Origin: Propionibacterium ruminifibrarum
GTDB taxonomy: Bacteria; Actinomycetota; Actinomycetes; Propionibacteriales; Propionibacteriaceae
DNA length: 32,000 bases
Direction: 5' to 3'
Assembly: GCF_900289195.1 (NCBI RefSeq)
Contig: NZ_OMOH01000003.1
Span: 296,697-328,696, forward strand
Shown here: positions 1 to 13,048 of the stretch, in pieces
Numbering within the stretch: position 1 is the stretch's first letter
Layout: every line of letters starts with the position of its first letter
Position numbers and translations under genes: made by a program
The notes under the pieces: generated by a model
The model's database searches: none
What the model saw: the letters and a program-made list of their open reading frames with translations, nothing else
Told to the model about the DNA's origin: nothing

Positions 1-2483
1 TCGTCGTTGCGGCCGAGGGTCGACCTGAGTTCGCGGGCCCGTGCCGCCAGGGCGCCGAGCGCCTCGTCCCCCCGCGGGCGGGCCGGTGCCGCGTCTGAGG
101 CCAGGCCGAGCATCTCGGCGACCTGTGGTGGCATGCCGGCCGCGGGCGCCCCGGCCCCGGGCCGGTCGCCGGCCGCCGGGGCGGCCGGTTCCGGCGCGTC
201 GAGCGCCTCGTCGATCAGTCGCGTCGCCAGGGCGCGCAGCCCGGCGAGTTCGGTGCGCGGCAGCCGGTCGAGCGAGTCCGGGTCCAGGCCCTGCGCCTCC
301 GCGACGACCTCGACGGCCGGCGGCAGCTCGGCGCCGCCGTGCCCGAGGGCGCCGTGCACCATCGTGCGGGTCTGTTCCGGGGTCCACGCCCGGCCGAAGA
401 CGTGCAGCCCCATCGGCGTCAGCGACTGCGCCAGGCGGTCCAGGTGGGGCTCCAGTTCGTCCGGATCGGTGGGCAGGTGCTCGGCCTCCGCGCGCCTGCG
501 CACCTCCTCGAGCAGCTCCCCGCTCGTCGCCGGCGACAGCGCGAGGCTGCGCCGGTACTCGGCCACCAGTTCGTCCAGCTCGGCGAGCGTGTCGTGCAGC
601 CCGCCGGGCACCATCGCCACCGGCTGGTAGCTGACGATCTGAGCGTGCGAGCGGCGCACCGCGATGAGCCCCTCGGCCGGGTTCCCGGCGTAGTAGAGGT
701 AGACGTGCGGCACGGAGCCCATCATGATGTCCGGGTAGCAGCGGGTGCTCACCGCGTTCTCCTTGCCCCCCAGGAACTCCAGCGTCCCGTGCGTGCCGAC
801 GTGGACGACGACGTCCGGGCGCCACACGCTCTGCAGCCAGGTGTAGAACGCCAGGTACTGCGGATGGGGCGGGGCCGTCTTGTCGTGGGCCTGGGAGTCG
901 GCCGTCGCACCGCCGCCGCGCCCGGGCTGGATGCCGACCAGGGCATTGCCGAACTCGAGGGCCGGGATGATGAAGTCGCCCTCCGGCGTCGTCATCGGGG
1001 CGGCCGGCCCGTCGGCCGGCCACGCCTGGTCGACCTGCGCCCAGGCCCGCTCGTCGCCGAGGTCGGCCCGCGCCTGCGCCCGCGGGTAGACGAACGGGGC
1101 GTCCGGGGCGTCGAACCGGGGCGAGTTCACGGCCCGGGACAGCAACTGGTCCAGCAGCTCGTCGGGCTCGGGCGTGCCCACCCGGTAGCCGGTGCGTGCC
1201 AGCTCGGCGAGGATTGCCGACATCGAGGCGGCGACGTCGAGGAAGGAGCCGCCCAGCAGCCTGCTCTCGCCGGCCGGGTAGTCGTAGCCGATGATCGCCA
1301 CGCGCGCCTCGGCCGGGTCGAGGCGCCGCAGCCGCAGCAGACCTGCGACGCGTCCGGCCAGGCGGTCGACCTGCTCGGGGATCGGGGTGAGCGCGTTGAG
1401 GGCGACCCCGTAGCGCTCGTCGACACGCGGGGCGCTCATCGCGGCCACCGGGATCTCGTCGATGCAGCCGTCGAGCTCCGGCAGCATCATCGACACCATC
1501 ACCTTGGCCGGGCTCAGCCCGGAGGCGGCCCGGAGCCAGTCCTCGATCGTGATGCGGGTCAGCAGGATCGGGTGCACGTGCGCGGCGCCCCACTCGTTGA
1601 GCAGTTCCGCCCCTGCGCCCGCCCTGCCGCCGCCGTAACTCGTGCCCAGCCGCAGGCTGAGCATGTTCACGACGACATCGGGTACGATGCCGGCCTCGCC
1701 CATGAGGCGCCGCAGGTCGTCGACCGTGCGGGTGGCGTTGCGCACCGCCAGCGGCAGCACCCAGCAGTGCGCGCCGAGCGCCTCGGCGACCGCCCTCGTC
1801 GCGGCCGTCGAGTCGATCGGGTAGCCGTCGCCGGGGTACAGCACGAGTGCGATCTGCCGGTCGCCGGGCCCGCCGACGGCCTCGATGTAGCGCCTCACGT
1901 CGGTGAATTCGCGCCCGCCCGCCAGGTCGACCGCGACGACGCCGTCGGCCGGGTACTCGGCCGACGTCACCACGACCTCGGGGTGGCCGCCGTACTCGTG
2001 CAGCAGCAGCGTGAGGAAGGCCCTGGCGTGCACCGGGCTCATCGCGTGGAAGCAGCGCAGCAGCGTCGACAGGTTGGCCAGGTCGGCCGCGAATCGTTCC
2101 GGGTCGGCGCCCTCGGCGCTCGTGGGCCGGGCGCCCGGCCCGGCCGGCCCGATGGGGACGCCGCCGGGGGCGGGACGGACGGTCCCCAGACGCAGCCTGT
2201 CGGTGAACAGGTGCCCGGGCGGCAGCAGATCGCCCTCGTAGGCCGCCACCGGCCCGGCCAGCGCGTCGGCCCAGGCCTGCGGCGCGCCGCTCAGGTCGAT
2301 GAGCAGGAAGTCACTGCTCGACACCGCCCCGGGCAGTCGCGCCGCGTCCTGCGGCGACGGGGGATCGGTGGCGTTGAACAGCCGGAGCTCGCAGGCGCCC
2401 GGATGGGTCCTCGCCAGATCCTGGTCGACCGCGATGAGGGCCGACAGCAGGTCCGGGCACACGCTGATGATCGTGATGCGCAT
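1..2483 (-). CDS. cobN: CobN-type cobaltochelatase / Mg-chelatase H-family large subunit, N-terminal ~827 codons (3' end runs off the left edge)
   Basis: It is missing from the ORF track because it has no stop codon inside the window. My reverse-strand translation starts at ATG (complement of 2481-2483), preceded by GAGGAGG (complement of 2491-2497). It stays open to position 1 and begins MRITIISVCPDLL. Around 839-760 it reads WLQSVWRPDVVVHVGTHGTLEFLGGK, the HGTLE(W/F)LPGK-type signature I associate with CobN/BchH chelatases. The 762-aa + ORF 339..2627 is its antisense shadow. Confidence 0.8.
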   Translation of the reverse strand, partial: MRITIISVCPDLLSALIAVDQDLARTHPGACELRLFNATDPPSPQDAARLPGAVSSSDFLLIDLSGAPQAWADALAGPVAAYEGDLLPPGHLFTDRLRLGTVRPAPGGVPIGPAGPGARPTSAEGADPERFAADLANLSTLLRCFHAMSPVHARAFLTLLLHEYGGHPEVVVTSAEYPADGVVAVDLAGGREFTDVRRYIEAVGGPGDRQIALVLYPGDGYPIDSTAATRAVAEALGAHCWVLPLAVRNATRTVDDLRRLMGEAGIVPDVVVNMLSLRLGTSYGGGRAGAGAELLNEWGAAHVHPILLTRITIEDWLRAASGLSPAKVMVSMMLPELDGCIDEIPVAAMSAPRVDERYGVALNALTPIPEQVDRLAGRVAGLLRLRRLDPAEARVAIIGYDYPAGESRLLGGSFLDVAASMSAILAELARTGYRVGTPEPDELLDQLLSRAVNSPRFDAPDAPFVYPRAQARADLGDERAWAQVDQAWPADGPAAPMTTPEGDFIIPALEFGNALVGIQPGRGGGATADSQAHDKTAPPHPQYLAFYTWLQSVWRPDVVVHVGTHGTLEFLGGKENAVSTRCYPDIMMGSVPHVYLYYAGNPAEGLIAVRRSHAQIVSYQPVAMVPGGLHDTLAELDELVAEYRRSLALSPATSGELLEEVRRRAEAEHLPTDPDELEPHLDRLAQSLTPMGLHVFGRAWTPEQTRTMVHGALGHGGAELPPAVEVVAEAQGLDPDSLDRLPRTELAGLRALATRLIDEALDAPEPAAPAAGDRPGAGAPAAGMPPQVAEMLGLASDAAPARPRGDEALGALAARARELRSTLGRND

Positions 2484-2610
2484 GATCACTCCTCCTCGGG
2501 GCCGGCCGCACTCGTGGCGGCCGGTGGTCGGTTCGTCGGTCGCCGCCCGCCCGGCGCCGGCTCGTCCGGGACGCGGACGCGATCCGCTCCCGGGGCCAGG
2601 GCGGTGCGCC

Positions 2611-2616
2611 TACACT
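2611..2616 (+). promoter_or_regulatory. -10-like hexamer TACACT placed for a leaderless yhhQ transcript
   Basis: TACACT ends 7 nt before the GTG at 2624. No Shine-Dalgarno sequence lies between them. Confidence 0.35.
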
Positions 2617-2623
2617 GCCGCCC

Positions 2624-3376
2624 GTGACAGATGAACCCACTGAGGCCCGGCACGTTGCGTCCCCGGCCGGGGACGGCGCCCCGGCCACGGGCCGCCCGGG
2701 CCCGGCCTATGCGAGCACGGGAGCCCGGTTCTACCCGATCATGCTGGCGGCCATGGCCGTCGTCATCGTGCTGTCGGGCATCGGCGGCTCGAAGGCCGTC
2801 CAGTTCGGCCCGATCCTCACCGACGGCGCCTTCTTCATCTTCCCGTTCAGCTACATCCTCGGTGACTCGATCACCGAGATCTACGGTCCCCGGGCCGCCC
2901 GACAGGCCATTACGACGGGTTTCGTCGTCAACATCATGAGCTCGATGATCTACTGGGTGATCATCGTGCTGCCGGGCCTGTCGGACGGCGACAACGCGGC
3001 CCGCGACGCGGCCTTCCGGCTGGCTCTCGGTCCGGTGTGGCAGGTCGTCCTGGCCGGTGTCGTCGGTTTCGCGGGCGGGCAGAGCGCCAACTCCTTCATC
3101 ATGTGGCTCGGCAAGCGGCGCCACCACGAGAAGGGCCTGTACGGGCGGCTCGTCTCGTCGACCGGTGTCGGCGAGTTCATCGACACGCTGCTGTTCTGCC
3201 TCATCGCCGCCCGCGCGATCGGCCTGACCACGGCCGGGCAGGTCGTGAACTACACGATCGTCGGCTACCTGTACAAGATCGCCCTGCAGTACGCCCTCAT
3301 GCCGCTCACCGGGCGCATCATCACGGCGATCAAGAAGCGCGAGCCGAGCTATCAGGCGGCGCTGGCCGCGGCCTGA
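2624..3376 (+). CDS. yhhQ: Queuosine-precursor (preQ0/preQ1) transporter, YhhQ/VUT (DUF165) family membrane protein
   Basis: The 250-aa ORF is multi-TM. The stretch FFIFPFSYILGDSITEIYGPRAARQAI matches the conserved FP.TY..D..TEVYG core I recall for YhhQ. It has a GTG start and about 35 aa of non-conserved N-terminus, so the true start could be further downstream. Confidence 0.75.
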   Translation: MTDEPTEARHVASPAGDGAPATGRPGPAYASTGARFYPIMLAAMAVVIVLSGIGGSKAVQFGPILTDGAFFIFPFSYILGDSITEIYGPRAARQAITTGFVVNIMSSMIYWVIIVLPGLSDGDNAARDAAFRLALGPVWQVVLAGVVGFAGGQSANSFIMWLGKRRHHEKGLYGRLVSSTGVGEFIDTLLFCLIAARAIGLTTAGQVVNYTIVGYLYKIALQYALMPLTGRIITAIKKREPSYQAALAAA

Positions 3377-3486: not shown

Positions 3487-4089
3487 TCAGCCCGTGACCT
3501 TCTCCTCTATCGTGACGCCGTAGGTGTTCTGGAAGTACTCCTGCGTGGCGGTCATCAGCTCGGCGGTCTCGGCCTGCGCCGAGTCCCAGCGCCCGTGCTG
3601 GCGGACCGGTTCGGAAGCGTCGTTGCCCTCGTCGTCCGTGATGCCGGTGAGGACCTGGTCGTCCAGTCCCATCGTGTAGTCGTACGTCGTGCCGCGCGCG
3701 GCCACGTGGTGGTGGCGGACGAAGGTGCGGTCGGCGTAGTTGAAGATGAAGTAGTCGCTGTAGTCGTCGCCGCTGGCGGGATCGACGAGCTGGAAGGTTG
3801 CCGTGCCGTCGGCGCCGGGTTCGATGGTGATGCGCACCCCGGCCCCCTCGGCCAGATCGGCCCCCAGGTCGGTCGCGGTGAGCACGCCGTCGGCGGTCTC
3901 GAAGTCCGTCGCGCTCGGCGCTGCGGTCGAGGACCCACCGGGGCTCGGCGCCGCACTCGTCGTGCCGGCCTGGGTGCTCTGAGGCGCCGAGGCGCTGTCC
4001 TGGCTGTCGCCGGACGACCCGGAGCAGGCCGACAGGGGCAGCGCCAGGGCCGCTGCGAGGAGGGGGACCAGTACTCGTGCGTTCATCAT
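3487..4089 (-). CDS. Secreted lipoprotein of unknown function, last gene of the ABC importer operon
   Basis: The track ORF 3487..4212 is trimmed here to the ATG at 4089, which forms an ATGA overlap with the ATPase stop at 4086-4088. AAGGAGA lies just upstream, and a second in-frame ATG at 4086 has better SD spacing. The N-terminus MMNARVLVPLLAAALALPLSAC has a canonical lipobox (LSAC). It is followed by an S/T/A/P-rich linker and a ~130-aa domain I do not recognise (…FIFNYADRTFVRHHHVAARGTTYDYTMGLDD…). Confidence 0.6.
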   Translation of the reverse strand: MMNARVLVPLLAAALALPLSACSGSSGDSQDSASAPQSTQAGTTSAAPSPGGSSTAAPSATDFETADGVLTATDLGADLAEGAGVRITIEPGADGTATFQLVDPASGDDYSDYFIFNYADRTFVRHHHVAARGTTYDYTMGLDDQVLTGITDDEGNDASEPVRQHGRWDSAQAETAELMTATQEYFQNTYGVTIEEKVTG

Positions 4090-4937
4090 TTCTCCTTGTC
4101 CAGAGGTTTTCCCGCCTGGCGGGCGGGGTTGGGTGAGGATCTGTGGCCGCCGGTCCGGCGTGACCGCGGCGCCACGACCGGCTGACCGCTGACCGGGTCG
4201 GCGCTGATCCATGCGTCGACGCCGAAGACCTGCTCGATGGCGCCGGTGTCCAGCGCCCGTCCGGGCGCGCCGGTCGCCCGCACACGCCCGTCGGACATGA
4301 GGACGGCGTTGTCGCAGTAGCGGGCGACCTGGGTGAGGTCGTGCAGCACCATGACGACGGTCAGCCCGCGCTCGGTGTTGAGCTCGCGGACCAGGTCGAG
4401 GATCTCGAGCTGGTGGGCGATGTCCAGGTAGGTGGTGGGCTCGTCGAGCAGGAGCAGCTGCGGCTCCTGGGCCAGGGCCGCCGCGAGCCAGACGCGCTGC
4501 CGCTCGCCGCCCGACAGCGTCCCGATCCGCCGATCCGCGAACGGGACGAGGCCGGTGCGCTCCAGCGCCGAGGCCACCGCGGCTCGCCCGCCGGCGTCAC
4601 GGGCCGTGAACCAGCCCTGGTGCGCGTAGCGCCCGTAGCCGACCATGTCGGCCACCCGCACCTCGGGGCCCGCCTGCGCGTTCTGCCAGACCACCGCCAT
4701 CGCCCGGCCTCGTCGCCGCGAACTCATCGAGGCGACCGGCTCCCCGCCCAGCAGCACCCGGCCCCGCACCGGCGCGGTGCCGCACACCGCGCGCACCAGC
4801 GTCGTCTTGCCGCAGCCGTTCGGCCCGATGATCCCGTGGACGAGGCCCGGCGCCAGGTCGAGGTCGATGCCGTGCAGGATCTCCCGGCCGCCCAGTTCGA
4901 CGACCAGTCCGCGCATCGACAGCCCGGCGCCGCTCAC
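4086..4937 (-). CDS. ABC transporter ATP-binding protein, FepC/FecE/BtuD-like (iron-chelate or corrinoid importer)
   Basis: Contains Walker A GPNGCGKTT, signature LSGGERQR and Walker B LLLLDEPT. The GTG start at 4937 overlaps the permease stop (GTGA). Confidence 0.9.
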   Translation of the reverse strand: MSGAGLSMRGLVVELGGREILHGIDLDLAPGLVHGIIGPNGCGKTTLVRAVCGTAPVRGRVLLGGEPVASMSSRRRGRAMAVVWQNAQAGPEVRVADMVGYGRYAHQGWFTARDAGGRAAVASALERTGLVPFADRRIGTLSGGERQRVWLAAALAQEPQLLLLDEPTTYLDIAHQLEILDLVRELNTERGLTVVMVLHDLTQVARYCDNAVLMSDGRVRATGAPGRALDTGAIEQVFGVDAWISADPVSGQPVVAPRSRRTGGHRSSPNPARQAGKPLDKEK

Positions 4938-5971
4938 AGCGCCCTCCTCAGCAGGAAGAGGAAGAAGGGCACGCCCAGGACCGTCATCGTGATGCCGACC
5001 GGGATCTCGACGGGGGAGAAGACCGTGCGCGAGAGGGTGTCGCTCACGACGAGCAGGGCCGCGCCGGCGAGGATCGAGCCGGGCACGGTGAGCCGGTGGT
5101 CCGGGCCCAGCACCATGCGCATGATGTGCGGAACGATGAGCCCGACGAAACCGAGCAGCCCGACCGCGCTCACCGCGCTCGCCGCGAGCACCGCCGCGAG
5201 CGCGGTGAAGAAGACGCGGTTGGCCTGGACGTTCATGCCCATCGAGCCGGCCGCGTCATCCCCCAGCACCAGCACGTTCAGCCGCCGCGCGAAGCAGCAG
5301 GCCAGCGCCAGTGAGACCAGTGAATAGGGCCACAGCCCGCGCACCTCGGTCCAGCCGCGCATCGACATCGCGCCGTTCATGAACATGAGGGCTCCGGCCA
5401 CCCGGTCGGAGAAGAGCACCATGAGCGCCGAGATGCCCGCCCCGCACAGCGCCGAGACGGCCACCCCGGCCAGGATGATCCGCAGCGGCTGGATGCCTCC
5501 CTTCCAGGCCAGCAGGAAGATCGCCGCGGCCGCCCCCATCGCACCGGCGAAGGCCGCCGGGGTGACGAGCGCCAGACGGCTCGGGGCGACGAGCATGATG
5601 CCGATCCCGAGCAGCCCGGCCCCCGAGGAGACGCCGATGATGCTCGGATCCGCCAGGGGATTGCTCATGACCGCCTGCAGGATGACGCCGCTGACGGCCA
5701 GGTTCATGCCCACCAGGACGGCGAGCAGCATGCGCGGCAGCCTGATGTCCCAGACGATCCGCCGCAGCGAGGCGTCGCGGCCCGTCAGGGCGTCGAGCAC
5801 CTGACCGGCCGACAGGTGGATGGAGCCCGCCCCGATCGCGTACAGGGCCCCCGCGACGAGCAGCACGGCCAGCGCGATGAAGACGCCGACGCGGAACCAG
5901 CCGCGCCCGGCGAGGCCGTGGTGGCCGTTGCCCGGGGATACCCCGGCGCGGCCGGTGATCGTCGCGCTCAT
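4934..5971 (-). CDS. FecCD/BtuC-family ABC importer permease
   Basis: The 345-aa polytopic protein has the typical FecCD layout (…IRLPRMLLAVLVGMNLAVSGVILQAVMSNPLADPSIIGVSSGAGL…). The ATG at 5971 overlaps the binding-protein stop (ATGA). Confidence 0.9.
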   Translation of the reverse strand: MSATITGRAGVSPGNGHHGLAGRGWFRVGVFIALAVLLVAGALYAIGAGSIHLSAGQVLDALTGRDASLRRIVWDIRLPRMLLAVLVGMNLAVSGVILQAVMSNPLADPSIIGVSSGAGLLGIGIMLVAPSRLALVTPAAFAGAMGAAAAIFLLAWKGGIQPLRIILAGVAVSALCGAGISALMVLFSDRVAGALMFMNGAMSMRGWTEVRGLWPYSLVSLALACCFARRLNVLVLGDDAAGSMGMNVQANRVFFTALAAVLAASAVSAVGLLGFVGLIVPHIMRMVLGPDHRLTVPGSILAGAALLVVSDTLSRTVFSPVEIPVGITMTVLGVPFFLFLLRRAL

Positions 5972-7026
5972 GCGTACTGCTGGGCGTCGCCGTAGACGTC
6001 GGGATGGATGCAGGCGGCCATGTAGGCCACCGCGTCACCGTAGTAGGGGCCGCCGTTGAGCAGGAAGTACTCCTGCGGCAGATAGGAGATGCGGCCCTCC
6101 CGCACGGCGTCGACCGCCTGCCAGGCCTGGTTGGACGCGAACTCCTCGTCCATGCGCGCCTGGGCGTCGGCGTCGGTCTCCACCATGCTCGTGACGAGCA
6201 CATGGTCGGGCTGGGCCGCCACGATGGCCTCGATGTCGAGGGGCGTCGTCTCCGAACCGGGATTGTCCGGGGTCAGGCCCGAGGCGATGTTCGTCAGGCG
6301 CAGGGTGCCGGCGATCTGCCCGGCGATCGAGTCGTCGAGCTTGACGGCCAGCGAGGTGGCGGTGACGTAGACGATGACGACGGACGGGGAGCCCTCGGGC
6401 AACCGGTCGACGACCTCGTCGACCCGGTCGCCGATCTGGGTGATGCGTTCGGACGCCGTGTCCGGGTGGCCGGTGAGCACGCCGAACGCCCGGTAGATCG
6501 CCTCGAGTTCGGCCTGGGAGCGGGCCCTCACCTGAAGACCCCGGATCCCCAGTTCGCGCAGCCTGGACAGCACGGTGTCCTGGGCGCCGCTCATGACGAT
6601 GACCAGGTCGGGCTCGTACGAGCTGACGGCCTCGATGTCGACGTTCGAGGTGGCGCCGACCGTCGGCACCGCGCGCATCGCCGCGTCGTTCTCGGGGACC
6701 GTCTTCACGTTGTCGGTGATCTGCACCGAGCAGACGGCCGTGCCGCCCACGTCATACCAGATGTTCATGGCGGTGCCCGCCAGGATGCACACCCGCTGCG
6801 GCGCCGAGTCGAAGTCGACGCTCCGGCCGCTGAAATCGGTGATGCTCAGCGGGAACTCGGTGCTCGTCATGGGCATCGGGCCGGCGTCGGCGGCTGCCGA
6901 CGGCTCATCGCCGGGCGGCGGGTCCTGCTGGCCGGCCGAGCAGCTCGCGCCGAGCATCGACATCGTTGCGCAGAGCACCGCAGCGAGTGCCCTGCGTGTT
7001 GCGCGGCGACGGCTGGTGACGGACAT
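5968..7026 (-). CDS. Periplasmic-binding-protein type 2 (FhuD/FepB/BtuF-like) substrate-binding protein, probable lipoprotein
   Basis: I chose the ATG at 7026 because AGGAGG lies 6 nt upstream; the track start at 7068 has no SD. The N-terminus MSVTSRRRATRRALAAVLCATMSMLGASC is a signal peptide with an Arg-rich n-region and a Cys at the cleavage region. The body resembles cluster-A siderophore/corrinoid binding proteins. Confidence 0.85.
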   Translation of the reverse strand: MSVTSRRRATRRALAAVLCATMSMLGASCSAGQQDPPPGDEPSAAADAGPMPMTSTEFPLSITDFSGRSVDFDSAPQRVCILAGTAMNIWYDVGGTAVCSVQITDNVKTVPENDAAMRAVPTVGATSNVDIEAVSSYEPDLVIVMSGAQDTVLSRLRELGIRGLQVRARSQAELEAIYRAFGVLTGHPDTASERITQIGDRVDEVVDRLPEGSPSVVIVYVTATSLAVKLDDSIAGQIAGTLRLTNIASGLTPDNPGSETTPLDIEAIVAAQPDHVLVTSMVETDADAQARMDEEFASNQAWQAVDAVREGRISYLPQEYFLLNGGPYYGDAVAYMAACIHPDVYGDAQQYA

Positions 7027-7093
7027 GGCGGCCTCCTGCGGTGATGCGAACGCGGTCACCTTATCCATGACCAGCCAGAAAAAAACAAGATCT

Positions 7094-7120
7094 TTGTGAA
7101 AAAAGTTTGCTTTTTCACAA
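7094..7120. repeat. Perfect 10-bp inverted repeat TTGTGAAAAA / TTTTTCACAA with a 7-nt spacer, inside an AT-rich island
   Basis: Positions 7094-7103 pair exactly with 7111-7120. The repeat lies between the putative iron box and the binding-protein start codon. On the minus-strand transcript the hairpin is followed 9 nt later by a T7 run (complement of 7078-7084). Confidence 0.6.
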
Positions 7121-7140
7121 GCGTGTTCGGTTCTAGCACA

Positions 7141-7159
7141 TAAGGTCAGGCGAACCTTG
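7141..7159. promoter_or_regulatory. DtxR/IdeR-type iron-box-like palindrome upstream of the ABC importer operon
   Basis: TAAGGTCAGGCGAACCTTG matches the IdeR/DtxR consensus TTAGGTTAGGCTAACCTAA at 14 of 19 positions by my count. It has AAGGT…ACCTT dyad symmetry and sits 115-133 nt upstream of the start at 7026. Confidence 0.4.
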
Positions 7160-7435
7160 CATGATATGGTCCGGCGGTCTGCCGTCCGAAGCCCCGCCCC
7201 GGCCCGCAGAACTCCTCACTGCCTCGACGCCGGGAACGCATGGGCGCCCGGCCGCGCCGGGCGGTGACGGTGGCCGGTTGTGCGGAGGCGCCCTCGGGTC
7301 CCCCGGGCGTCACTGCCGAGGCCGGGATCGGAGCCGGCGGCGTCGCCGCGGGGCGCGGGGGAGGACGGCTTTTCCGGACGATTCATGAGCCCCGGGGGCA
7401 AGGGGCGCGCCGGTTTGTGTACATTGAGAAGTGCT

Positions 7436-7640
7436 GGTTCAGCCCATCGTCAGATGGGCTGTCGTAAGAGGGAATTCCGGTGAGAGGCCGGAGCTGTCCC
7501 GCAGCGGTGTATGGGAACAACGTCACAACGAGCACTGGGCCCGATGGCCTGGGAAGCGGTGGTGTAGGAACCGGGAGCGATCCCGAGTGCCCATGAGCCC
7601 GAAGACCTGCCAGCCGCAGCGGCGCGAGCCGCTGCGGAAC
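7436..7640 (+). promoter_or_regulatory. Cobalamin (AdoCbl) riboswitch, + strand, with a downstream GC hairpin as candidate expression platform
   Basis: The core elements appear in canonical order. These are GAGGGAAttCCGGTGAGAGGCCGGAGCTGTCCCGCAGCGGTG (7468-7509), GAGCACTGGGcccgatggCCTGGGAAGCG (7530-7558) and the B12 box GAGCCCGAAGACCTGCC (7595-7611). A 9-bp hairpin lies at 7440-7461. A perfect 10-bp hairpin CCGCAGCGGC-gcga-GCCGCTGCGG lies at 7614-7637. Confidence 0.85.
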
Positions 7641-7891
7641 GTGCCCCGCGGAGGGTCCACGGATCGGAGCGATCGGTGCCCGGCGATGCGCATCATCACC
7701 GGGTCCGGTCACGAAGATCAGTGCCAGCGGTTCCGGCGAACGCCTGCCTGGCGAGCCGGTGGGCGACCACCGGACGAACCAGCAGGGCCGCACCGGAGCC
7801 ACCAGCCCCCGACGTCAGCGCCGGGGCCATGCCAGGTGGGTGCCGGGCTCACGCCCGTCGCCCGCCGATGACCGGCTGGCAGCCAGTCCCC

Positions 7892-7913
7892 GGTGCGCCC
7901 CACCCGGCGCACC
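7892..7913 (+). promoter_or_regulatory. 8-bp GC hairpin (GGTGCGCC-ccaccc-GGCGCACC) ~20 nt upstream of the mutA SD
   Basis: The arms are perfect complements and are followed by CTGACCCTTTCAGGAGCAGGAG. The function is unknown; an attenuator or processing site is possible. Confidence 0.3.
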
Positions 7914-7939
7914 CTGACCCTTTCAGGAGCAGGAGTCGA

Positions 7940-9844
7940 ATGAGCAACACCGAATCGGGCGCCACCGCGGCCGAAGAGGCCACGCCCGCTCAGCTCAGCC
8001 TCGCCGGTGATTTCCCGGCAGTCACTGAGGAGCAGTGGGAGATCGAGGTGGCCAAGGTTCTCAACCGCGGTCGTCCACCAGAGAAGCAGCTCTCCGTCGA
8101 GCAGAGCATGAAGCGTCTGACGGTTCACACCGTCGACGGCATCGACATCAAGCCCATGTACCGGCGCGATGACGTCCCCGGCCCGCTGGGCTATCCGGGC
8201 GTCGCCCCGTTCACGCGCGGCACCACCGTGCGCAATGGCGAGGCGGATGCATGGGACGTGCGCGCCCTCCACGAGGATCCCGACGCGGACTTCACCGCCA
8301 AGGCGATCCTCACTGATCTGGAGCGGGGCGTCACCTCCATCTGGCTGCGCACCGGTTCCGACGCCGTCAACCCGGCCGACGTGGCCACCGTGCTGTCCGA
8401 CGTGCTCCTCGAGATGGTCAAGGTCGAGGTCTCCTCCCGCGAGGACCAGCAGGCGGCCGCCGAGGCCCTTCTCGCCGTCTACGAGGCCAGCGACAAGCCC
8501 AAGGACCACCTCGCCTTCAACCTCGGTCTCGACCCCATCGGCCTGGCCGCCCTGCAGGGCACCGCCGCCGACCTGTCCGGACTGGGCGCCTGGGTCGAGC
8601 GCATCGCCGCCTACCCGAAGGGCAGCGCGATCACCGTCGACTCGACGATCTACCACAACGCCGGCGCCGGCGACGTCGCCGAGCTCGCCTGGGCCCTGGC
8701 CACCGGAGCCGAGTACGTGCGGGCCCTCGTCGAGCAGGGCGTCGACGTCAATGACGCGTTCCGGACGATCGAGTTCCGCGTGACGGCCACCCACGACCAG
8801 TTCCTCACCATCGCCCGGCTGCGCGCGCTGCGCACCTGCTGGCAGCGGATCGGTGAGGTCTTCGGCGTCGACGAGGCCAACCGCGGCGCCCGTCAGAACG
8901 CCGTCACCAGCTGGCGGGAGCTGACCCGCGAGGATCCCTACGTCAACATCCTGCGCGGCACGATCGCCACCTTCGCCGCCTCCGTCGGCGGCGCCGAGGC
9001 CATCACGACGCTGCCGTTCTGCGCCGCCTTCGGCCTGCCCGACGACTTCGTGCGCAGGATCGCCCGCAACACCGGCATCATCCTGGCCGAGGAGGTCAAC
9101 ATCGGCCGGGTCAACGACCCGGGCGGCGGCTCCTTCTACGTCGAGTCCCTGACCGACGCCCTGGCCAAGGCCGGCTGGGCGGAGTTCCAGAAGACCGAGG
9201 CGGCCGGCGGCATGGCCGCCGCCCTGGTCGGCGGGCACGTCGCCGAGGTCCTGTCCGAGTGCAACACCGAGCGCGCCAAGCGCCTGGCGAGCCGCAGACA
9301 GCCCATCACGGCCGTGAGCGAGTTCCCGATGCTCGACGCCCGGACCGTCGAGGTCAAGCCCAATCCCGAGGCCCCGGCCCGCGGCGGCCTGGAGTGGCAC
9401 CGCGACTCCGAGGTCTTCGAGAAGCTCGTCGACCGCTCCGCCGCCCTGCCCGAGAGGCCGAAGGTCTTCCTGGCCTGCCTCGGCACGCGCCGTGACTTCG
9501 GCGGCCGCGAGGGCTTCTCGGCCCCCGTCTGGCACGTGGGCGGTATCGAGACCCCCGAGGTCGAGGGCGGCACGGTCGACGAGATCGTCGCCGCGTTCAA
9601 GGACAGTGGCGCGCAGGTCGTAGACTTGTGCTCGTCCGCCAAGGTCTACGCCGAGCAGGGCGTCGAGGTCGCCAAGGCCCTCCGCCAGGCCGGTGCGAAG
9701 GCCGTCTACCTGTCCGGTGCCTACAAGGAACTGGGCATCTCGGACGACGAGGCCGCCGAGATCTTCGACGGTCGCCTGTTCATGGGCATGGATGTCGTCG
9801 ACATCCTCACGCGCACGCTCGATGTCATGGGGGTGACGGAATGA
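7940..9844 (+). CDS. mutA: Methylmalonyl-CoA mutase small (beta) subunit
   Basis: The ATG at 7940 is preceded by AGGAG (7931-7935). The N-terminus [51 protein letters not shown] parallels the Propionibacterium MutA N-terminus as I recall it. The track ORF starting at 7676 adds 88 R/P/A-rich non-coding-looking residues. Confidence 0.95.
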
Positions 9845-12048
9845 GTGCTCTTCCTCGTTTTGATTCTGTCGAACTCGGTGCGGGGGCCGTCCCGGCCTCT
9901 GCCGCCGAGGACTTCGCCCGCCTGGCCGCTGAGGCAGGCACCGGCGAGCAGTGGGTGACCCCGGAGCAGATCCCCGTCGGCACCCTGTACGGCGAGGAGG
10001 CCTACGAGGGCGCCGACTGGCTGGACACCTACGCCGGCCTGCCGCCGTTCACCCACGGCCCGTACGCCACCATGTACGCCTTCCGGCCGTGGACGATCCG
10101 CCAGTACGCCGGGTTCTCCACCGCCAAGGAGTCCAACGCCTTCTACCGCCGCAACCTCGCGGCCGGCCAGAAGGGCCTGTCGGTCGCCTTCGACCTGCCC
10201 ACCCACCGCGGCTACGACTCGGACAACCCGCGCGTCCCCGGTGACGTCGGCATGGCCGGTGTGGCCGTCGACTCGATCTACGACATGCGTGAGCTGTTCT
10301 CGGGCATCCCGCTCGACCAGATGAGCGTGTCGATGACGATGAACGGCGCGGTGCTGCCGATCCTCGCCCTCTACGTGGTGACCGCCGAGGAGCAGGGCGC
10401 CAAGATGGAGCAGCTGGCGGGAACGATCCAGAACGACATCCTCAAGGAGTTCATGGTTCGTAACACCTACATCTACCCGCCCCAGCCGTCGATGCGGATC
10501 ATCTCCGACATCTTCGCGTTCACCAGCGCGAACATGCCGAAGTGGAACTCGATCTCCATCTCCGGCTACCACATGCAGGAGGCCGGTGCCACGGCCGACA
10601 TCGAGATGGCCTACACGCTGGCCGACGGCGTCGACTACCTGCGCGCCGGCGAGTCCGTGGGCCTCAAGGTCGACCAGTTCGCCCCGCGCCTGTCGTTCTT
10701 CTGGGCCATCGGCACCAACTTCTTCATGGAGGTCGCGAAGATGCGCGCGGCCCGCATGCTGTGGGCCAAGCTCGTCAACCAGTTCGGTCCGAAGAACCCC
10801 AAGTCGCTGAGCCTGCGTACTCACTCGCAGACCTCCGGCTGGTCGCTGACCGCTCAGGACGTGTACAACAACGTGGTCCGCACCTGCGTCGAGGCCATGG
10901 CCGCGACCCAGGGGCACACCCAGTCGCTGCACACGAACTCCCTGGACGAGGCCATCGCGCTGCCGACCGACTTCTCGGCCCGTATCGCCCGCAACACCCA
11001 GCTGTTCCTGCAGCAGGAGTCGGGCACCTGCCGTGTCGTCGACCCGTGGAGCGGCTCGGCCTACGTCGAGCAGCTCACCAAGGAGCTGGCGCGCAGGGCC
11101 TGGGGTCACATCCAGGAGGTCGAGGCGGCCGGCGGCATGGCCAAGGCCATCGAGCAGGGCATCCCGAAGATGCGCATCGAGGAGGCGGCCGCCCGCACCC
11201 AGGCGCGCATCGACTCCGGGAACCAGCCGCTGATCGGCGTGAACAAGTACCGTCTCGACCACGAGGACCCGCTCGAGGTCCTCAAGGTCGACAACTCCCA
11301 GGTGCTCGCCGAGCAGAAGGCCAAGCTGGTCAAGCTGCGCGCCGAACGGGACGAGGAGGCCACCCAGGCCGCCCTCGACAGGCTCGCCTGGGCCGCTGCG
11401 AACCCCGATCCCACCGACCCCGACCGCAACCTGCTCAAGCTGTGCATCGACGCAGGTCGCGCGATGGCCTCCGTGGGAGAGATGAGCGACGCCATGGAGC
11501 GCAGCTTCGGTCGCTACACCGCGCAGATCCGGACGATCTCCGGCGTGTACGCCAAGGAAGTGAAGGATTCGGCTGAGGTGGACGAGGCACACGAGCTCGT
11601 GGAGAAGTTCGAGCAGCTCGAGGGCCGTCGCCCTCGTATCCTGCTCGCCAAGATGGGCCAGGACGGCCACGACCGCGGCCAGAAGGTCATCGCAACGGCC
11701 TTCGCCGACCTCGGTTTCGACGTCGACGTGGGCCCGCTGTTCCAGACGCCGGAGGAGACGGCGCGTCAGGCCATCGAGGCCGACGTGCACGTGGTGGGTG
11801 TGTCGTCGCTGGCCGCCGGCCACCTCACGCTCGTCCCGGCGCTGCGTCAGGAGCTCGACGCCCTGGGTCGCCAGGACATCCTCATCGTCGTGGGCGGCGT
11901 CATCCCCGAGGACGACTTCCAGGCCCTCCGCGATGCGGGCGCCATGGACATCTACCCGCCCGGCACGGTCATCCCGGATTCGGCGGTGCGTCTGCTCAAG
12001 GAACTGATCAGCTCCCTCGACGCGGACGAGGCCCCGGCGGATGCCTAG
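9841..12048 (+). CDS. mutB: Methylmalonyl-CoA mutase large (alpha, B12-binding) subunit
   Basis: The ATG at 9841 overlaps the mutA stop (ATGA). The protein is 735 aa. It has the mutase TIM-barrel region (…[48 protein letters not shown]…) and a C-terminal B12-binding domain with the DxHxxG motif ([11 protein letters not shown]). Confidence 0.95.
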
Positions 12049-13048
12049 GAGCATCGACGTCGATGCGCTGGTCGGCCAGGTCCTGGCCGGCCAGCGCACT
12101 GGCATTGCCCGTGCGATCACCCTGGTGGAGTCGGCCCTGCCTGCGCACCGGCCGCTGGCGCGCAAACTGCTCGCCCAGCTGCTCCCGTACGCGGGCAACG
12201 CCACGCGCGTCGGCCTGACCGGTGTTCCCGGCGCCGGGAAGTCGACGTTCACCGACGCCATGGGCTGCCGGCTGATCGACCGCGGCCACAAGGTGGCGGT
12301 TCTGGCCGTCGACCCGTCGAGCACCCGCACCGGCGGCTCGATCCTCGGCGACCGCACCCGGATGGGCAAGCTCGCCGAGTCCGACTCGGCCTACATCCGC
12401 CCGTCACCGTCCGGTGGCCATCTCGGCGGCGTGGCCCGGGCAACCCGTGAGGCCATGATCATCGTCGAGGCGGCCGGCTACGACACCGTGATCGTCGAGA
12501 CCGTCGGCGTCGGCCAGTCCGAGGTCGCGGTGGCCGGCATGGTCGACACCTTCCTCATGCTCTCCCTGGCCCGTTCGGGCGACCAGCTGCAGGGCATCAA
12601 ACGCGGCATCCTCGAGCTCGCCGACGTCATCGCCGTCAACAAGGCCGATGGCGACAACGCGCCGGCCGCCCGCTTGACGGCCCGCGACCTGTCCATCGCG
12701 ATGAAGCTCATCAATGACGAGTCCAGCGGGCGCCGCACCCCGGTCATGACCTGTTCGGCCCTGACCGGCGACGGGCTGGACGACGTCTGGAAGGCCGTCG
12801 AGGAGCACCGCGCCTGGATCGAGGAGACAGTCGGCCTGGCGCGCTACCGCGCGGACCAGCAGATCGACTGGATGTGGGCCCAGATCGAGAGTCAGGTGCT
12901 CGACTCACTGCGCTCGACCCAGGAGTTGCGTGAACTCGGCCGCGCCCTGGAGGAGAAGGTCGGGGCGTCCACCGAGAGCGCCCTCGACGCCTCGGTCGAG
13001 TTCCTCACCACCTGGGCCGAGCAGGTGCCCGGCTTCCAGTGGGAGTGA
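12041..13048 (+). CDS. meaB: MeaB/ArgK G-protein chaperone of methylmalonyl-CoA mutase
   Basis: Contains the P-loop GVPGAGKST, a [10 protein letters not shown] switch region and the NKADG specificity motif. It overlaps the mutB 3' end by 8 nt. Confidence 0.9.

Follow-up and report, generated by a model that had tools for sequence, protein, structure and literature searches.

A cobalamin riboswitch that probably heads the methylmalonyl-CoA mutase operon of propionibacteria, and a leader that may hold the remains of a lost first gene

What does a cobalamin riboswitch control when the genes downstream of it encode an enzyme that itself requires cobalamin? The question is raised by a locus of Propionibacterium ruminifibrarum (NCBI RefSeq assembly GCF_900289195.1, contig NZ_OMOH01000003.1, positions 296,697 to 328,696 of the forward strand; these 32,000 nucleotides (nt) are the window referred to below), in which such a riboswitch precedes mutA, mutB and meaB. 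Cobalamin riboswitches are textbook repressors of genes for B12 supply and of B12-independent isozymes. A cis-acting switch on the principal consumer of the cofactor is, to our knowledge, a rarely discussed exception, and we know of none that has been functionally tested. A first-pass annotation of the locus, made from the letters alone, had proposed either an ON-type or otherwise atypical expression platform or a riboswitch-terminated stand-alone RNA. The anatomy that it described turned out to be right, and its interpretation partly right: the element probably acts in cis on mutA. The best overall explanation, to which we would give about even chances, is that the riboswitch belongs to the leader of the mut operon, that the spacer between the aptamer and mutA was left by the decay of a first gene, and that a three-element switch in this leader represses mutA.

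The element appears, by sequence, to be a genuine and ordinary member of the Rfam family RF00174, which was the sole Rfam match in the whole window (cmscan, plus strand, 87.4 bits, E 1.6e-20, compared to a gathering score of 31.5 bits) and covers the full model (1-189). It should be noted that a permissive scan of the minus strand of 6900-8000 gave no RF00174 match even at E<=5; a degenerate minus-strand aptamer serving the divergent ABC importer was rejected on this ground. The riboswitch thus lies on the mutA strand, as had been claimed. The motifs quoted earlier, together with two hairpins, are all present within 2 nt of the positions then given, and the element was correctly located, although its earlier start coordinate, 7436, falls inside helix P1. 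The conserved GGGAA, GCCACUG and GGGAAG motifs of the family are found, the P1 and P3-P6 junction helices consist of standard pairs, and the non-canonical pairs flagged by cmscan are limited to outer P1 and a few peripheral positions. The B12 box, extended by A7612, fits 17 of the 18 positions (counted by eye) of the consensus rAGYCMGgAgaCCkGCcd, as quoted in PMC5644110. Core residues are unchanged across Propionibacterium, Acidipropionibacterium, Luteococcus and Raineyella, and CCCGCAG, in the region of loop L5, is unchanged in all aligned leaders. The long extension points to the adenosylcobalamin (AdoCbl) type. The B12 box, four-way junction, peripheral extension and C-rich L5 are shared with E. 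coli btuB and other classical Cbl-I members of RF00174. However, the latter control uptake or biosynthesis genes, with a ribosome-binding site within ~30-100 nt of the aptamer, whereas in the window the target is the main cofactor consumer, and the ribosome-binding site is 328 nt from the B12 box.

The association of this aptamer with mutA can be stated with high confidence on comparative grounds. Among 14 genome loci encoding MutA relatives, RF00174 was found just upstream of mutA, on the same strand, in 12 (Propionibacterium, Acidipropionibacterium and Luteococcus); it was missing in a distant Propionibacteriaceae metagenome-assembled genome and in Hyphomonas. The same arrangement is present in P. 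freudenreichii, A. jensenii and Raineyella fluvialis, and recurs in two Raineyella-like contigs and ~40 metagenome loci. It was not seen in the checked metagenome loci with MutA identity at or below ~64%, nor at mutA of Brooklawnia, oral taxon 192, Tessaracoccus, Propionimicrobium and Aestuariimicrobium. The riboswitch-mutA synteny therefore holds in four genera (Propionibacterium, Acidipropionibacterium, Luteococcus and Raineyella), whereas what lies upstream varies. The ABC importer stands upstream of the aptamer in the window and in three related loci (L002, L003 and L098); its place is taken by another gene in P. australiense (whose MutA is 95% identical to that of the window), by cbiL in P. 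freudenreichii, and by methylase, glyoxalase-like or ribosomal protein genes in the Raineyella-like loci. In Luteococcus sp. H101 (L010 1-1983) an rRNA operon lies directly upstream of riboswitch-mutA, with the 16S gene on the minus strand at 465-1983, followed by the start of the 23S gene; the upstream context is thus not conserved. The aptamer-to-mutA spacer ranges from 82 to 359 nt among the leaders (311 nt in the window; 99 to 376 nt from the B12 box to the start codon across clades), yet the aptamer is always on the mutA strand.

The promoter signal points in the same direction. A -10 hexamer of the TANNNT type occurs 12-13 nt upstream of the P1 5' strand in 18/18 leaders from four genera, with T, A and the last T unchanged in leader alignment A1, and we consider this positional signal strong. 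The RNA 5' end is most likely at about 7431-7433, at the foot of P1 and ~7 nt past the -10 box. Inside the aptamer-mutA spacers of 18 leaders (3745 nt) we found no TANNNT, compared to ~13 expected by shuffles and ~2.6 expected at the 0.69 per kb found in the window itself. A further promoter, be it in the spacer or in a conserved distal block, was rejected, although the absence of the hexamer is only weakly significant versus the window background. A scan of 6900-8100 revealed no terminator-like sites. Because the same-strand aptamer is kept with mutA, a -10 box precedes P1 and the upstream genes vary, we regard the element, with good though not complete confidence, as a cis-acting 5' leader of the mut operon and not as a stand-alone RNA. 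As the first-pass annotation had it, mutA at 7940 is the downstream gene on the riboswitch strand, mutB and meaB follow, and it is to these three genes that the riboswitch belongs; the leader would form a single transcription unit with them (the mutB start overlaps the mutA end by ATGA).

Two other arrangements were observed at mut loci. Loci of the P. cyclohexanicum-like and P. freudenreichii-like types carry an additional short cobalamin aptamer (22-35 bits, without the peripheral extension) on the opposite strand; ~60-220 nt separate it from the beginning of the mutA aptamer (141 nt in P. freudenreichii). Nothing comparable accompanies the riboswitch of the window (6900-8000 minus strand, E<=5). 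In the riboswitch-less Brooklawnia, oral taxon 192 and Propionimicrobium (L016, L017 and L020), a common conserved ribosome-binding region, CTGGGAGGAGTGAACCGATGAC, is located ~25 nt before mutA, and these loci also have in common a conserved upstream gene for an NAD-binding dehydrogenase. This layout is an alternative, riboswitch-free organisation of the mut operon.

The ~300-nt spacer is best explained by a lost first gene, whose remains it would be; neither an exotic ON platform nor a stand-alone RNA is needed to account for it. In the window the GC content by codon position is flat in all frames (0.74/0.75/0.73, vs 0.70/0.48/0.93 in mutA), and the spacer middle contains indels and is unalignable even among close relatives. 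A conserved leader peptide was rejected, since neither frames nor sequences are kept among the window and L001-L003 and the GC1/2/3 profile is flat. In Raineyella fluvialis and related contigs the position of the spacer is occupied by a real gene of 145-152 aa (orf150). Its products fall into eight clusters at 60-82% identity and gave no Pfam match, and the GC pattern is that of coding sequence. The gene starts ~110-140 nt past the aptamer, behind the Shine-Dalgarno (SD) sequence CCGAGGAGCC, and its stop TGA overlaps the mutA ATG. The predicted structure (AlphaFold, pLDDT 73, pTM 0.70) resembles GNAT acyl-CoA N-acyltransferases (Foldseek E ~1e-4, TM 0.45-0.6), suggesting, with moderate confidence, a GNAT-like product. 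The C-terminus of orf150, T(I/L)T(M/L)SGAGV(A/L)*, matches the 10-residue peptide that can be read in the window through the mutA SD, and the match includes a serine codon-family switch. The SD region of the window (block C below) encodes SGAGV, the last codons of the lost open reading frame, and the stop TGA at 7941-7943 overlaps the mutA ATG. Searches of the spacer with orf150 (tblastn, hmmsearch) recovered the last 10-30 codons only (E 0.03-0.2). At the level of sequence, these matches demonstrate that the 3' end of the window spacer is homologous to that of orf150; that the spacer as a whole represents the remains of a lost first cistron, either an ancestral GNAT-like gene or an upstream open reading frame (uORF), we infer with moderate strength. 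According to this scenario, a ~150-aa GNAT-like first gene, translationally coupled to mutA through ATGA, would have decayed to the present ~300-nt structured non-coding spacer.

The states of this frame in different lineages (Table 1) provide a series from the intact GNAT-like gene through junk uORFs and mini-uORFs to a non-coding spacer, i.e., a natural experiment on the riboswitch-gene link after the decay of the first cistron. The uORFs of L005, L006, L007, L012, L015, L026 and L052 each have an SD in front and extend from a point shortly past the riboswitch platform to a stop at the mutA ATG or overlapping it. Their middles are not conserved, yet the frames stay open in spite of indels; this suggests that selection has acted on translation through the leader (coupling) and not on the peptide.

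The structured parts of the leader lie at both ends of the spacer. The perfect 10-bp hairpin after P1 (7614-7637) and the 8-bp GC hairpin before the mutA SD (7892-7913), both reported in the first-pass annotation, are real; they beat all shuffles and slid controls, and 95% of cells are paired in the proximal structure, compared to 29-51% in slid controls. The post-P1 hairpin has GC<->AU compensatory changes in three pairs and a variable tetraloop, and it recurs with unrelated sequence in Acidipropionibacterium type A4. The distal hairpin shows compensatory changes (UA<->CG, CG<->GC) in 4/8 pairs among eight leaders. By its pattern of substitutions, the post-P1 hairpin appears to be a structural element that stacks on P1, and not a terminator or a kissing partner; the compensatory changes and the variable tetraloop speak against the latter role. 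It is followed by AACGUGCC, with no U-tract, and the possibility that either hairpin is an intrinsic terminator was rejected because there is no U-tract and there were no terminator-scan matches. Pairing of the 3' arm with the identical aptamer segment CCGCAGCGG (7500-7508) was rejected by eye on alignment A1, since the hairpin arms covary, the aptamer segment is unchanged, and the complementarity is lost in L003 and L007.

Three short conserved blocks complete the leader. Block A, next to the aptamer, is unchanged in 7/9 Propionibacterium leaders, and G-rich motifs occupy its place in other clades (CGGGGA, CGGGGAC, GCGGGG and CGAGGGG). Its GCGG and GGG (in 7648-7655) are, as read from the sequence, complementary to CCGC and CCC of L5, which makes block A a candidate for L13/P13 and for an anti-anti-SD. 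The core of block B, the candidate anti-SD, is unchanged in 9/9 Propionibacterium leaders. Block C, the 12-mer SD GGAGCAGGAGUC, is identical in the 16 riboswitch-bearing leaders examined (Propionibacterium, Acidipropionibacterium and Luteococcus) and in Acidipropionibacterium-like metagenome platforms; it is GGAGCAGGAGCC in Raineyella fluvialis, and the mutA SD differs in genera without the riboswitch. The local fold of 7870-7945 is a three-way structure that buries both SD halves (-31.2 kcal/mol; also obtained with RNAalifold). Its pairs between UGGCAGCC and GGAGUCG are unchanged or altered on one side only. A segment of block A, GGAGGGUC (7650-7657), is complementary to GACCCUUU of block B (8 bp including two G-U, -11.9 kcal/mol in the window). 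When block B was scanned over the entire leader, block A was its best or second-best partner in 7/7 leaders having A, at -12.9 to -14.6 kcal/mol; taken together, the estimates for the A:B duplex amount to -11.9 to -14.6 kcal/mol across leaders, and B:C amounts to -7.8 kcal/mol. In the local fold, B is instead predicted to pair with AGG of the SD.

These complementarities can be arranged into a switch, which we put forward tentatively. Transcription would start from the TACATT -10 box, and the first ~200 nt would fold into the AdoCbl-type aptamer. By default, the mutA SD would be buried with block B and 7870-7884. In the ligand-free state, GGAGGGUC of block A would pair with B across the spacer, so that the SD is freed. 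With AdoCbl bound, L5 would kiss the GCGG/GGG of block A and lock A in its mini-hairpin; with A captured, B would re-pair with the SD, and mutA translation, and via polarity the expression of the whole operon, would go down. In this scheme, the partner of the kissing loop, the pairings among A, B and C and the direction of regulation are all putative. Repression is the sign toward which we lean, if slightly, because the elements are ordered in a way that favours it: the G-rich block adjoins the aptamer, the pyrimidine anti-SD comes next and the SD last. This order is that of repressing actinobacterial B12 switches, and an ON-type or atypical platform, as proposed earlier, is not supported by it. 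In M. tuberculosis, metE and ppe2 are under translational OFF switches, in which the L5 kissing loop blocks an anti-anti-TIR (TIR, translation initiation region) and the anti-TIR closes the TIR (bioRxiv 10.1101/2023.04.25.538288); in ppe2, the switch acts on a uORF that overlaps the next gene by AUGA (same source), much like the overlap of orf150 or the uORFs with mutA. These actinobacterial switches also share with the window the CCC of L5 and the lack of intrinsic terminators. However, the three elements directly adjoin one another in the M. tuberculosis switches, whereas ~260 nt lie between A and B in the window; the genes controlled there are those of a B12-independent isozyme and of a PPE/cobalamin-related operon, whereas ours encode a B12-dependent enzyme; and the M. 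tuberculosis switches have experimental support, whereas the window switch is predicted from sequence. In a folding model of a Raineyella leader, blocking of the L5-complementary motif changed the unpaired SD from 0.59 to 0.16, i.e., in the OFF direction. Two other partners for the SD were rejected. Pairing with the L4-L5 segment of the aptamer reaches -20 kcal/mol in Acidipropionibacterium and -14 to -18.5 kcal/mol in clade 2 and Luteococcus; since the window clade lacks this pairing, it cannot be a general mechanism. Pairing with CCUGC of the B12 box has 5 bp only and is not among the top sites.

Several observations weigh against the scheme, and against repression as such. Since neither L5 nor any of blocks A, B and C varies, covariation cannot back any pairing among the four; the stretch available for kissing in the window measures no more than 3-4 nt (GCGG or GGG); and a separation of 260 nt between anti-anti-SD and anti-SD is unusual. 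P. freudenreichii and L005 have no block A and no strong partner for block B. When the L5-complementary motif was blocked in thermodynamic models of 17 leaders, there was no consistent direction of the effect. The support from the missing spacer promoters is, as noted above, weak by the background measure. Finally, it would run against physiological intuition to repress a B12-dependent enzyme at times of ample B12, and the controls of B12-dependent pathways known to us (eut and pdu) are all net activating.

An activating switch, in which AdoCbl frees the mutA SD or prevents premature termination, so that apo-mutase and chaperone are made only with the cofactor, is the principal alternative; we consider it rather unlikely, although physiological logic speaks for it. 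The characterised controls EutX/Rli55 and AspocR, which tie B12 availability to the expression of B12-dependent pathways, are net activating; they are trans-acting or antisense RNAs ended by a riboswitch-controlled terminator, in contrast to the window aptamer, which is in cis, co-oriented and syntenic with mutA or orf150-mutA, and has no terminator. In Raineyella-like leaders the L5-complementary motif CCUCGGGG is also complementary to CCGAGG of the SD, and there a kissing loop might in principle set the SD free; in the modelling, L002 and L006 moved slightly toward ON. However, these Raineyella leaders have a second anti-SD able to close the SD (folds of L019 and L023), and the aptamer-proximal element of the window, which is purine-rich and SD-like (GGAGGG), is unable to pair with the SD and is left with an anti-anti-SD role only. 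A natural activating corrinoid riboswitch does exist in Alkalihalobacillus halodurans cobT, where a P13 antiterminator competes with an intrinsic terminator in response to cobinamide, and according to the 2023 paper that describes it all other known corrinoid riboswitches repress (PMC10653944). Both cobT and the window have a corrinoid aptamer in an unexpected context, and cobT would be the closest precedent if the mutA switch were ON. This mechanism requires an intrinsic terminator with a 5' half that overlaps the 3' side of P13. No terminator-like site was found in 6900-8100, and without a U-tract terminator hairpin the window leader is unlikely to be of the cobT type, although activation by another route is possible. 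An activating mutA leader would work without a terminator, through a ~260-nt RNA contact across a decayed gene, and it is to this version that the same low probability applies. Regulation of either sign through elongation or stability, by Rho termination or RNase attack in the leader modulated by the ligand-dependent fold, appears less probable still. The leader is ~500 nt long and untranslated in the window clade, intrinsic terminators are rare in actinobacteria, and protection from Rho by translation would fit the lineages in which an SD-preceded uORF spans the whole spacer; B12 switches of M. tuberculosis are reported to be augmented by Rho or mRNA decay (bioRxiv 10.1101/2023.04.25.538288), and the cbiM riboswitch of P. 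UF1 is described as acting at the transcriptional level (PMC11494915). Conversely, the spacer is highly structured and not rich in C over G (C 0.38, G 0.36), and translation-dependent shielding cannot operate in the window clade, which has no uORF.

A stand-alone B12-binding RNA, or a relic next to a mutA transcribed from its own promoter in the spacer, is very improbable in our view. The 311 nt between aptamer and mutA, the stable hairpin directly after P1, the loss in the window clade of the frame that the switch originally controlled, and the precedent of EutX/Rli55 and AspocR would fit it. However, there is no terminator-like site in 6900-8100, no U-tract and no -10-like hexamer in the spacers of 18 leaders; the aptamer, block A and the distal block are strongly conserved while the middle varies freely; the aptamer keeps to the mutA strand at any spacer length; and in Raineyella-like loci the switch stands directly before the first gene of the operon. 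The riboswitch-terminated RNA of the first-pass annotation is not upheld by these data. That the riboswitch serves the divergent ABC importer, e.g., through antisense or promoter interference, is effectively refuted by strand and synteny. This importer is of the FecCD/BtuCD type and could carry corrinoids, and in clade-2 loci, as in P. freudenreichii, the weak second aptamer points toward the divergent gene. As had been argued earlier, however, the importer cannot be a direct target: the aptamer is on the wrong strand, the minus strand has no match (6900-8000, E<=5), and in both P. australiense and P. freudenreichii another gene takes the place of the importer. In addition, ~350 nt lie between the importer start and the aptamer, and an AT-rich region belonging to the importer contains a palindrome that resembles an operator, together with a DtxR/IdeR-like box.

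The arrangement itself was known. A passage of Deptula et al. 2017 (PMC5644110, citing Vitreschak 2003) places B12 riboswitches upstream of cbiL, cbiB and mutA in P. freudenreichii, and says there that their effect 'is yet to be addressed'. As the mutA arrangement was already predicted in 2003, the window element is an ortholog of a known arrangement and not a new one. The P. freudenreichii element (L015; RF00174 95 bits, 350 nt upstream of mutA) shares with the window the SD 12-mer, the distal hairpin with UUGACCCUUUC and the position of the -10 box. Unlike the window, it lacks CCCCGCGGAGGGUC and has a hairpin GGCAU-loop(CGGGGAC)-AUGCC, followed by GAGGAG and an 87-codon frame to the mutA-overlapping stop. 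Its divergent neighbour is cbiL with its own short aptamer, compared to the ABC importer in the window. The cbiL switch, which is presumably repressing, has a contiguous G-rich/anti-SD/SD order, GGGCGAGGUA / UACCU / GAGGAGG (by eye), with the same logic as A/B/C. In the literature searched we found no experimental test of a mutA B12 switch and no description of a B12-riboswitch-controlled GNAT-like gene heading a mutase operon. What is added here is how far the arrangement extends among genera, the conservation of its promoter and of the platform hairpins, a probable origin of the spacer from a GNAT-like first gene since lost, and a testable three-element model.

Table 1. Positions of the features of the mutA leader and its surroundings in the window and in related loci
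Feature	Locus	Position	Strand	Remarks
-10 hexamer TACATT (TANNNT type)	window	7420-7425	+	position conserved in relatives
Aptamer, AdoCbl-type (predicted), with large peripheral extension	window	7418-7628	+	cmscan
P1 5' strand GCUGGU	window	7433-7438	+	6 standard pairs with 7609-7614 (cmscan alignment)
GAGGGAA motif	window	7468-7474	+	
CCGGTGAGAGGCCGG motif	window	7477-7491	+	
GTCCCGCAGCGGTG motif	window	7496-7509	+	
L5 loop UCCCG, candidate kissing-loop donor	window	7497-7501	+	position from cmscan alignment
GCACTGGG motif	window	7532-7539	+	
CCTGGGAAG motif	window	7548-7556	+	
B12 box GAGCCCGAAGACCTGCC / GAGCCCGAAGACCUGCC	window	7595-7611	+	last 3 bases (7609-7611) open the P1 3' strand
Post-P1 hairpin	window	7614-7623 with 7628-7637	+	10 perfect bp, loop GCGA, -23.8 kcal/mol
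Block A CCCCGCGGAGGGUC	window	7644-7657	+	mini-hairpin (G/A)CCC-CGCGGA-GGGU with SD-like GGAGGG
Small conserved hairpin GAUCG-GAG-CGAUC	window	7662-7674	+	two pairs changed on both sides between clades
Variable non-coding spacer middle	window	7675-7860	+	flat codon-position GC, poor alignment
UGGCAGCC	window	7877-7884	+	predicted pairing with GGAGUCG of the SD region (RNAalifold helix)
Distal GC hairpin	window	7892-7899 with 7906-7913	+	8 bp, -16.9 kcal/mol; directly upstream of anti-SD and SD
Block B GACCCUUUC	window	7916-7924	+	pyrimidine-rich anti-SD candidate
Block C GGAGCAGGAGUC	window	7926-7937	+	double Shine-Dalgarno of mutA
mutA, methylmalonyl-CoA mutase small subunit	window	7940-9844	+	TIGR00642, 815.7 bits (cutoff 617)
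mutB, methylmalonyl-CoA mutase large (B12-binding) subunit	window	9841-12048	+	NF006944, 1257.9 bits
meaB, mutase-associated GTPase chaperone	window	12041-13048	+	NF006958, 461 bits; overlaps mutB end
ABC importer, FecCD/BtuCD type	window	4086-7068	-	divergent from mutA
orf150 (proteins P0121-P0128)	L019 (Raineyella-like)	2067-2504		between B12 riboswitch and mutA; frame to mutA-overlapping stop intact
orf150 (proteins P0121-P0128)	L023 (Raineyella-like)	2501-2959		as above
orf150 (proteins P0121-P0128)	L024 (Raineyella-like)	2501-2956		as above
Same frame	L071			orf150 presumed from ~620-nt aptamer-to-mutA gap
Frame to mutA-overlapping stop	L015 (P. freudenreichii)	2741-3004		SD-preceded, 87 codons, non-conserved
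Frame to mutA-overlapping stop	L026 (P. freudenreichii)	1241-1504		SD-preceded, 87 codons, non-conserved
Frame to mutA-overlapping stop	L005	2891-3004		37 codons
Frame to mutA-overlapping stop	L006 and L007	2738-3004		88 codons each
Frame to mutA-overlapping stop	two Acidipropionibacterium leader types			9-12 codons, MSI(H/Q)SGAGV
Short uORF at mutA ATG	L012	2966-3004		12 codons
Short uORF at mutA ATG	L052	1466-1495		9 codons
Frame to mutA-overlapping stop	window clade, L004, other Acidipropionibacterium types, Luteococcus			no SD-preceded start
Opposite-facing short aptamer	L004	2218-2385	-	
Opposite-facing short aptamer	L005	2242-2372	-	
Opposite-facing short aptamer	L006	2246-2373	-	
Opposite-facing short aptamer	L007	2243-2406	-	
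Opposite-facing short aptamer	L015 (P. freudenreichii)	2211-2301	-	facing cbiL

The surroundings of the importer deserve a separate description. A perfect 10-bp inverted repeat, TTGTGAAAAA-N7-TTTTTCACAA, is located in an AT-rich island at 7094-7120, ~30-50 nt upstream of the importer start codon (7068, minus strand), and looks operator-like; it was not found in the related loci searched. The sequence TAAGGTCAGGCGAACCTTG at 7142-7160 fits 14/19 positions of TTAGGTTAGGCTAACCTAA, which we take to be the consensus of the DtxR/IdeR iron box. If this box is real, the divergent importer would be regulated by iron and not by B12. Beyond the importer, at 2624-3376 (plus strand), there is an open reading frame with a Vut_1 domain (putative vitamin uptake transporter, YhhQ-like; E 6e-39), with no riboswitch match nearby.

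The client of the riboswitch, methylmalonyl-CoA mutase together with MeaB, is at the heart of propionate fermentation. If the switch is repressing, the apoenzyme would be part of the B12-biosynthesis regulon, and the supply of and demand for the cofactor would be balanced by a single signal. If it is activating, this would be a new regulatory logic for the cobalamin riboswitch class. It would be the first example of an ON cobalamin switch that acts in cis on an enzyme requiring cobalamin and, A. halodurans cobT being the first, the second activating corrinoid riboswitch found in nature. Either sign would be relevant to the industrial production of B12 and propionate in propionibacteria.

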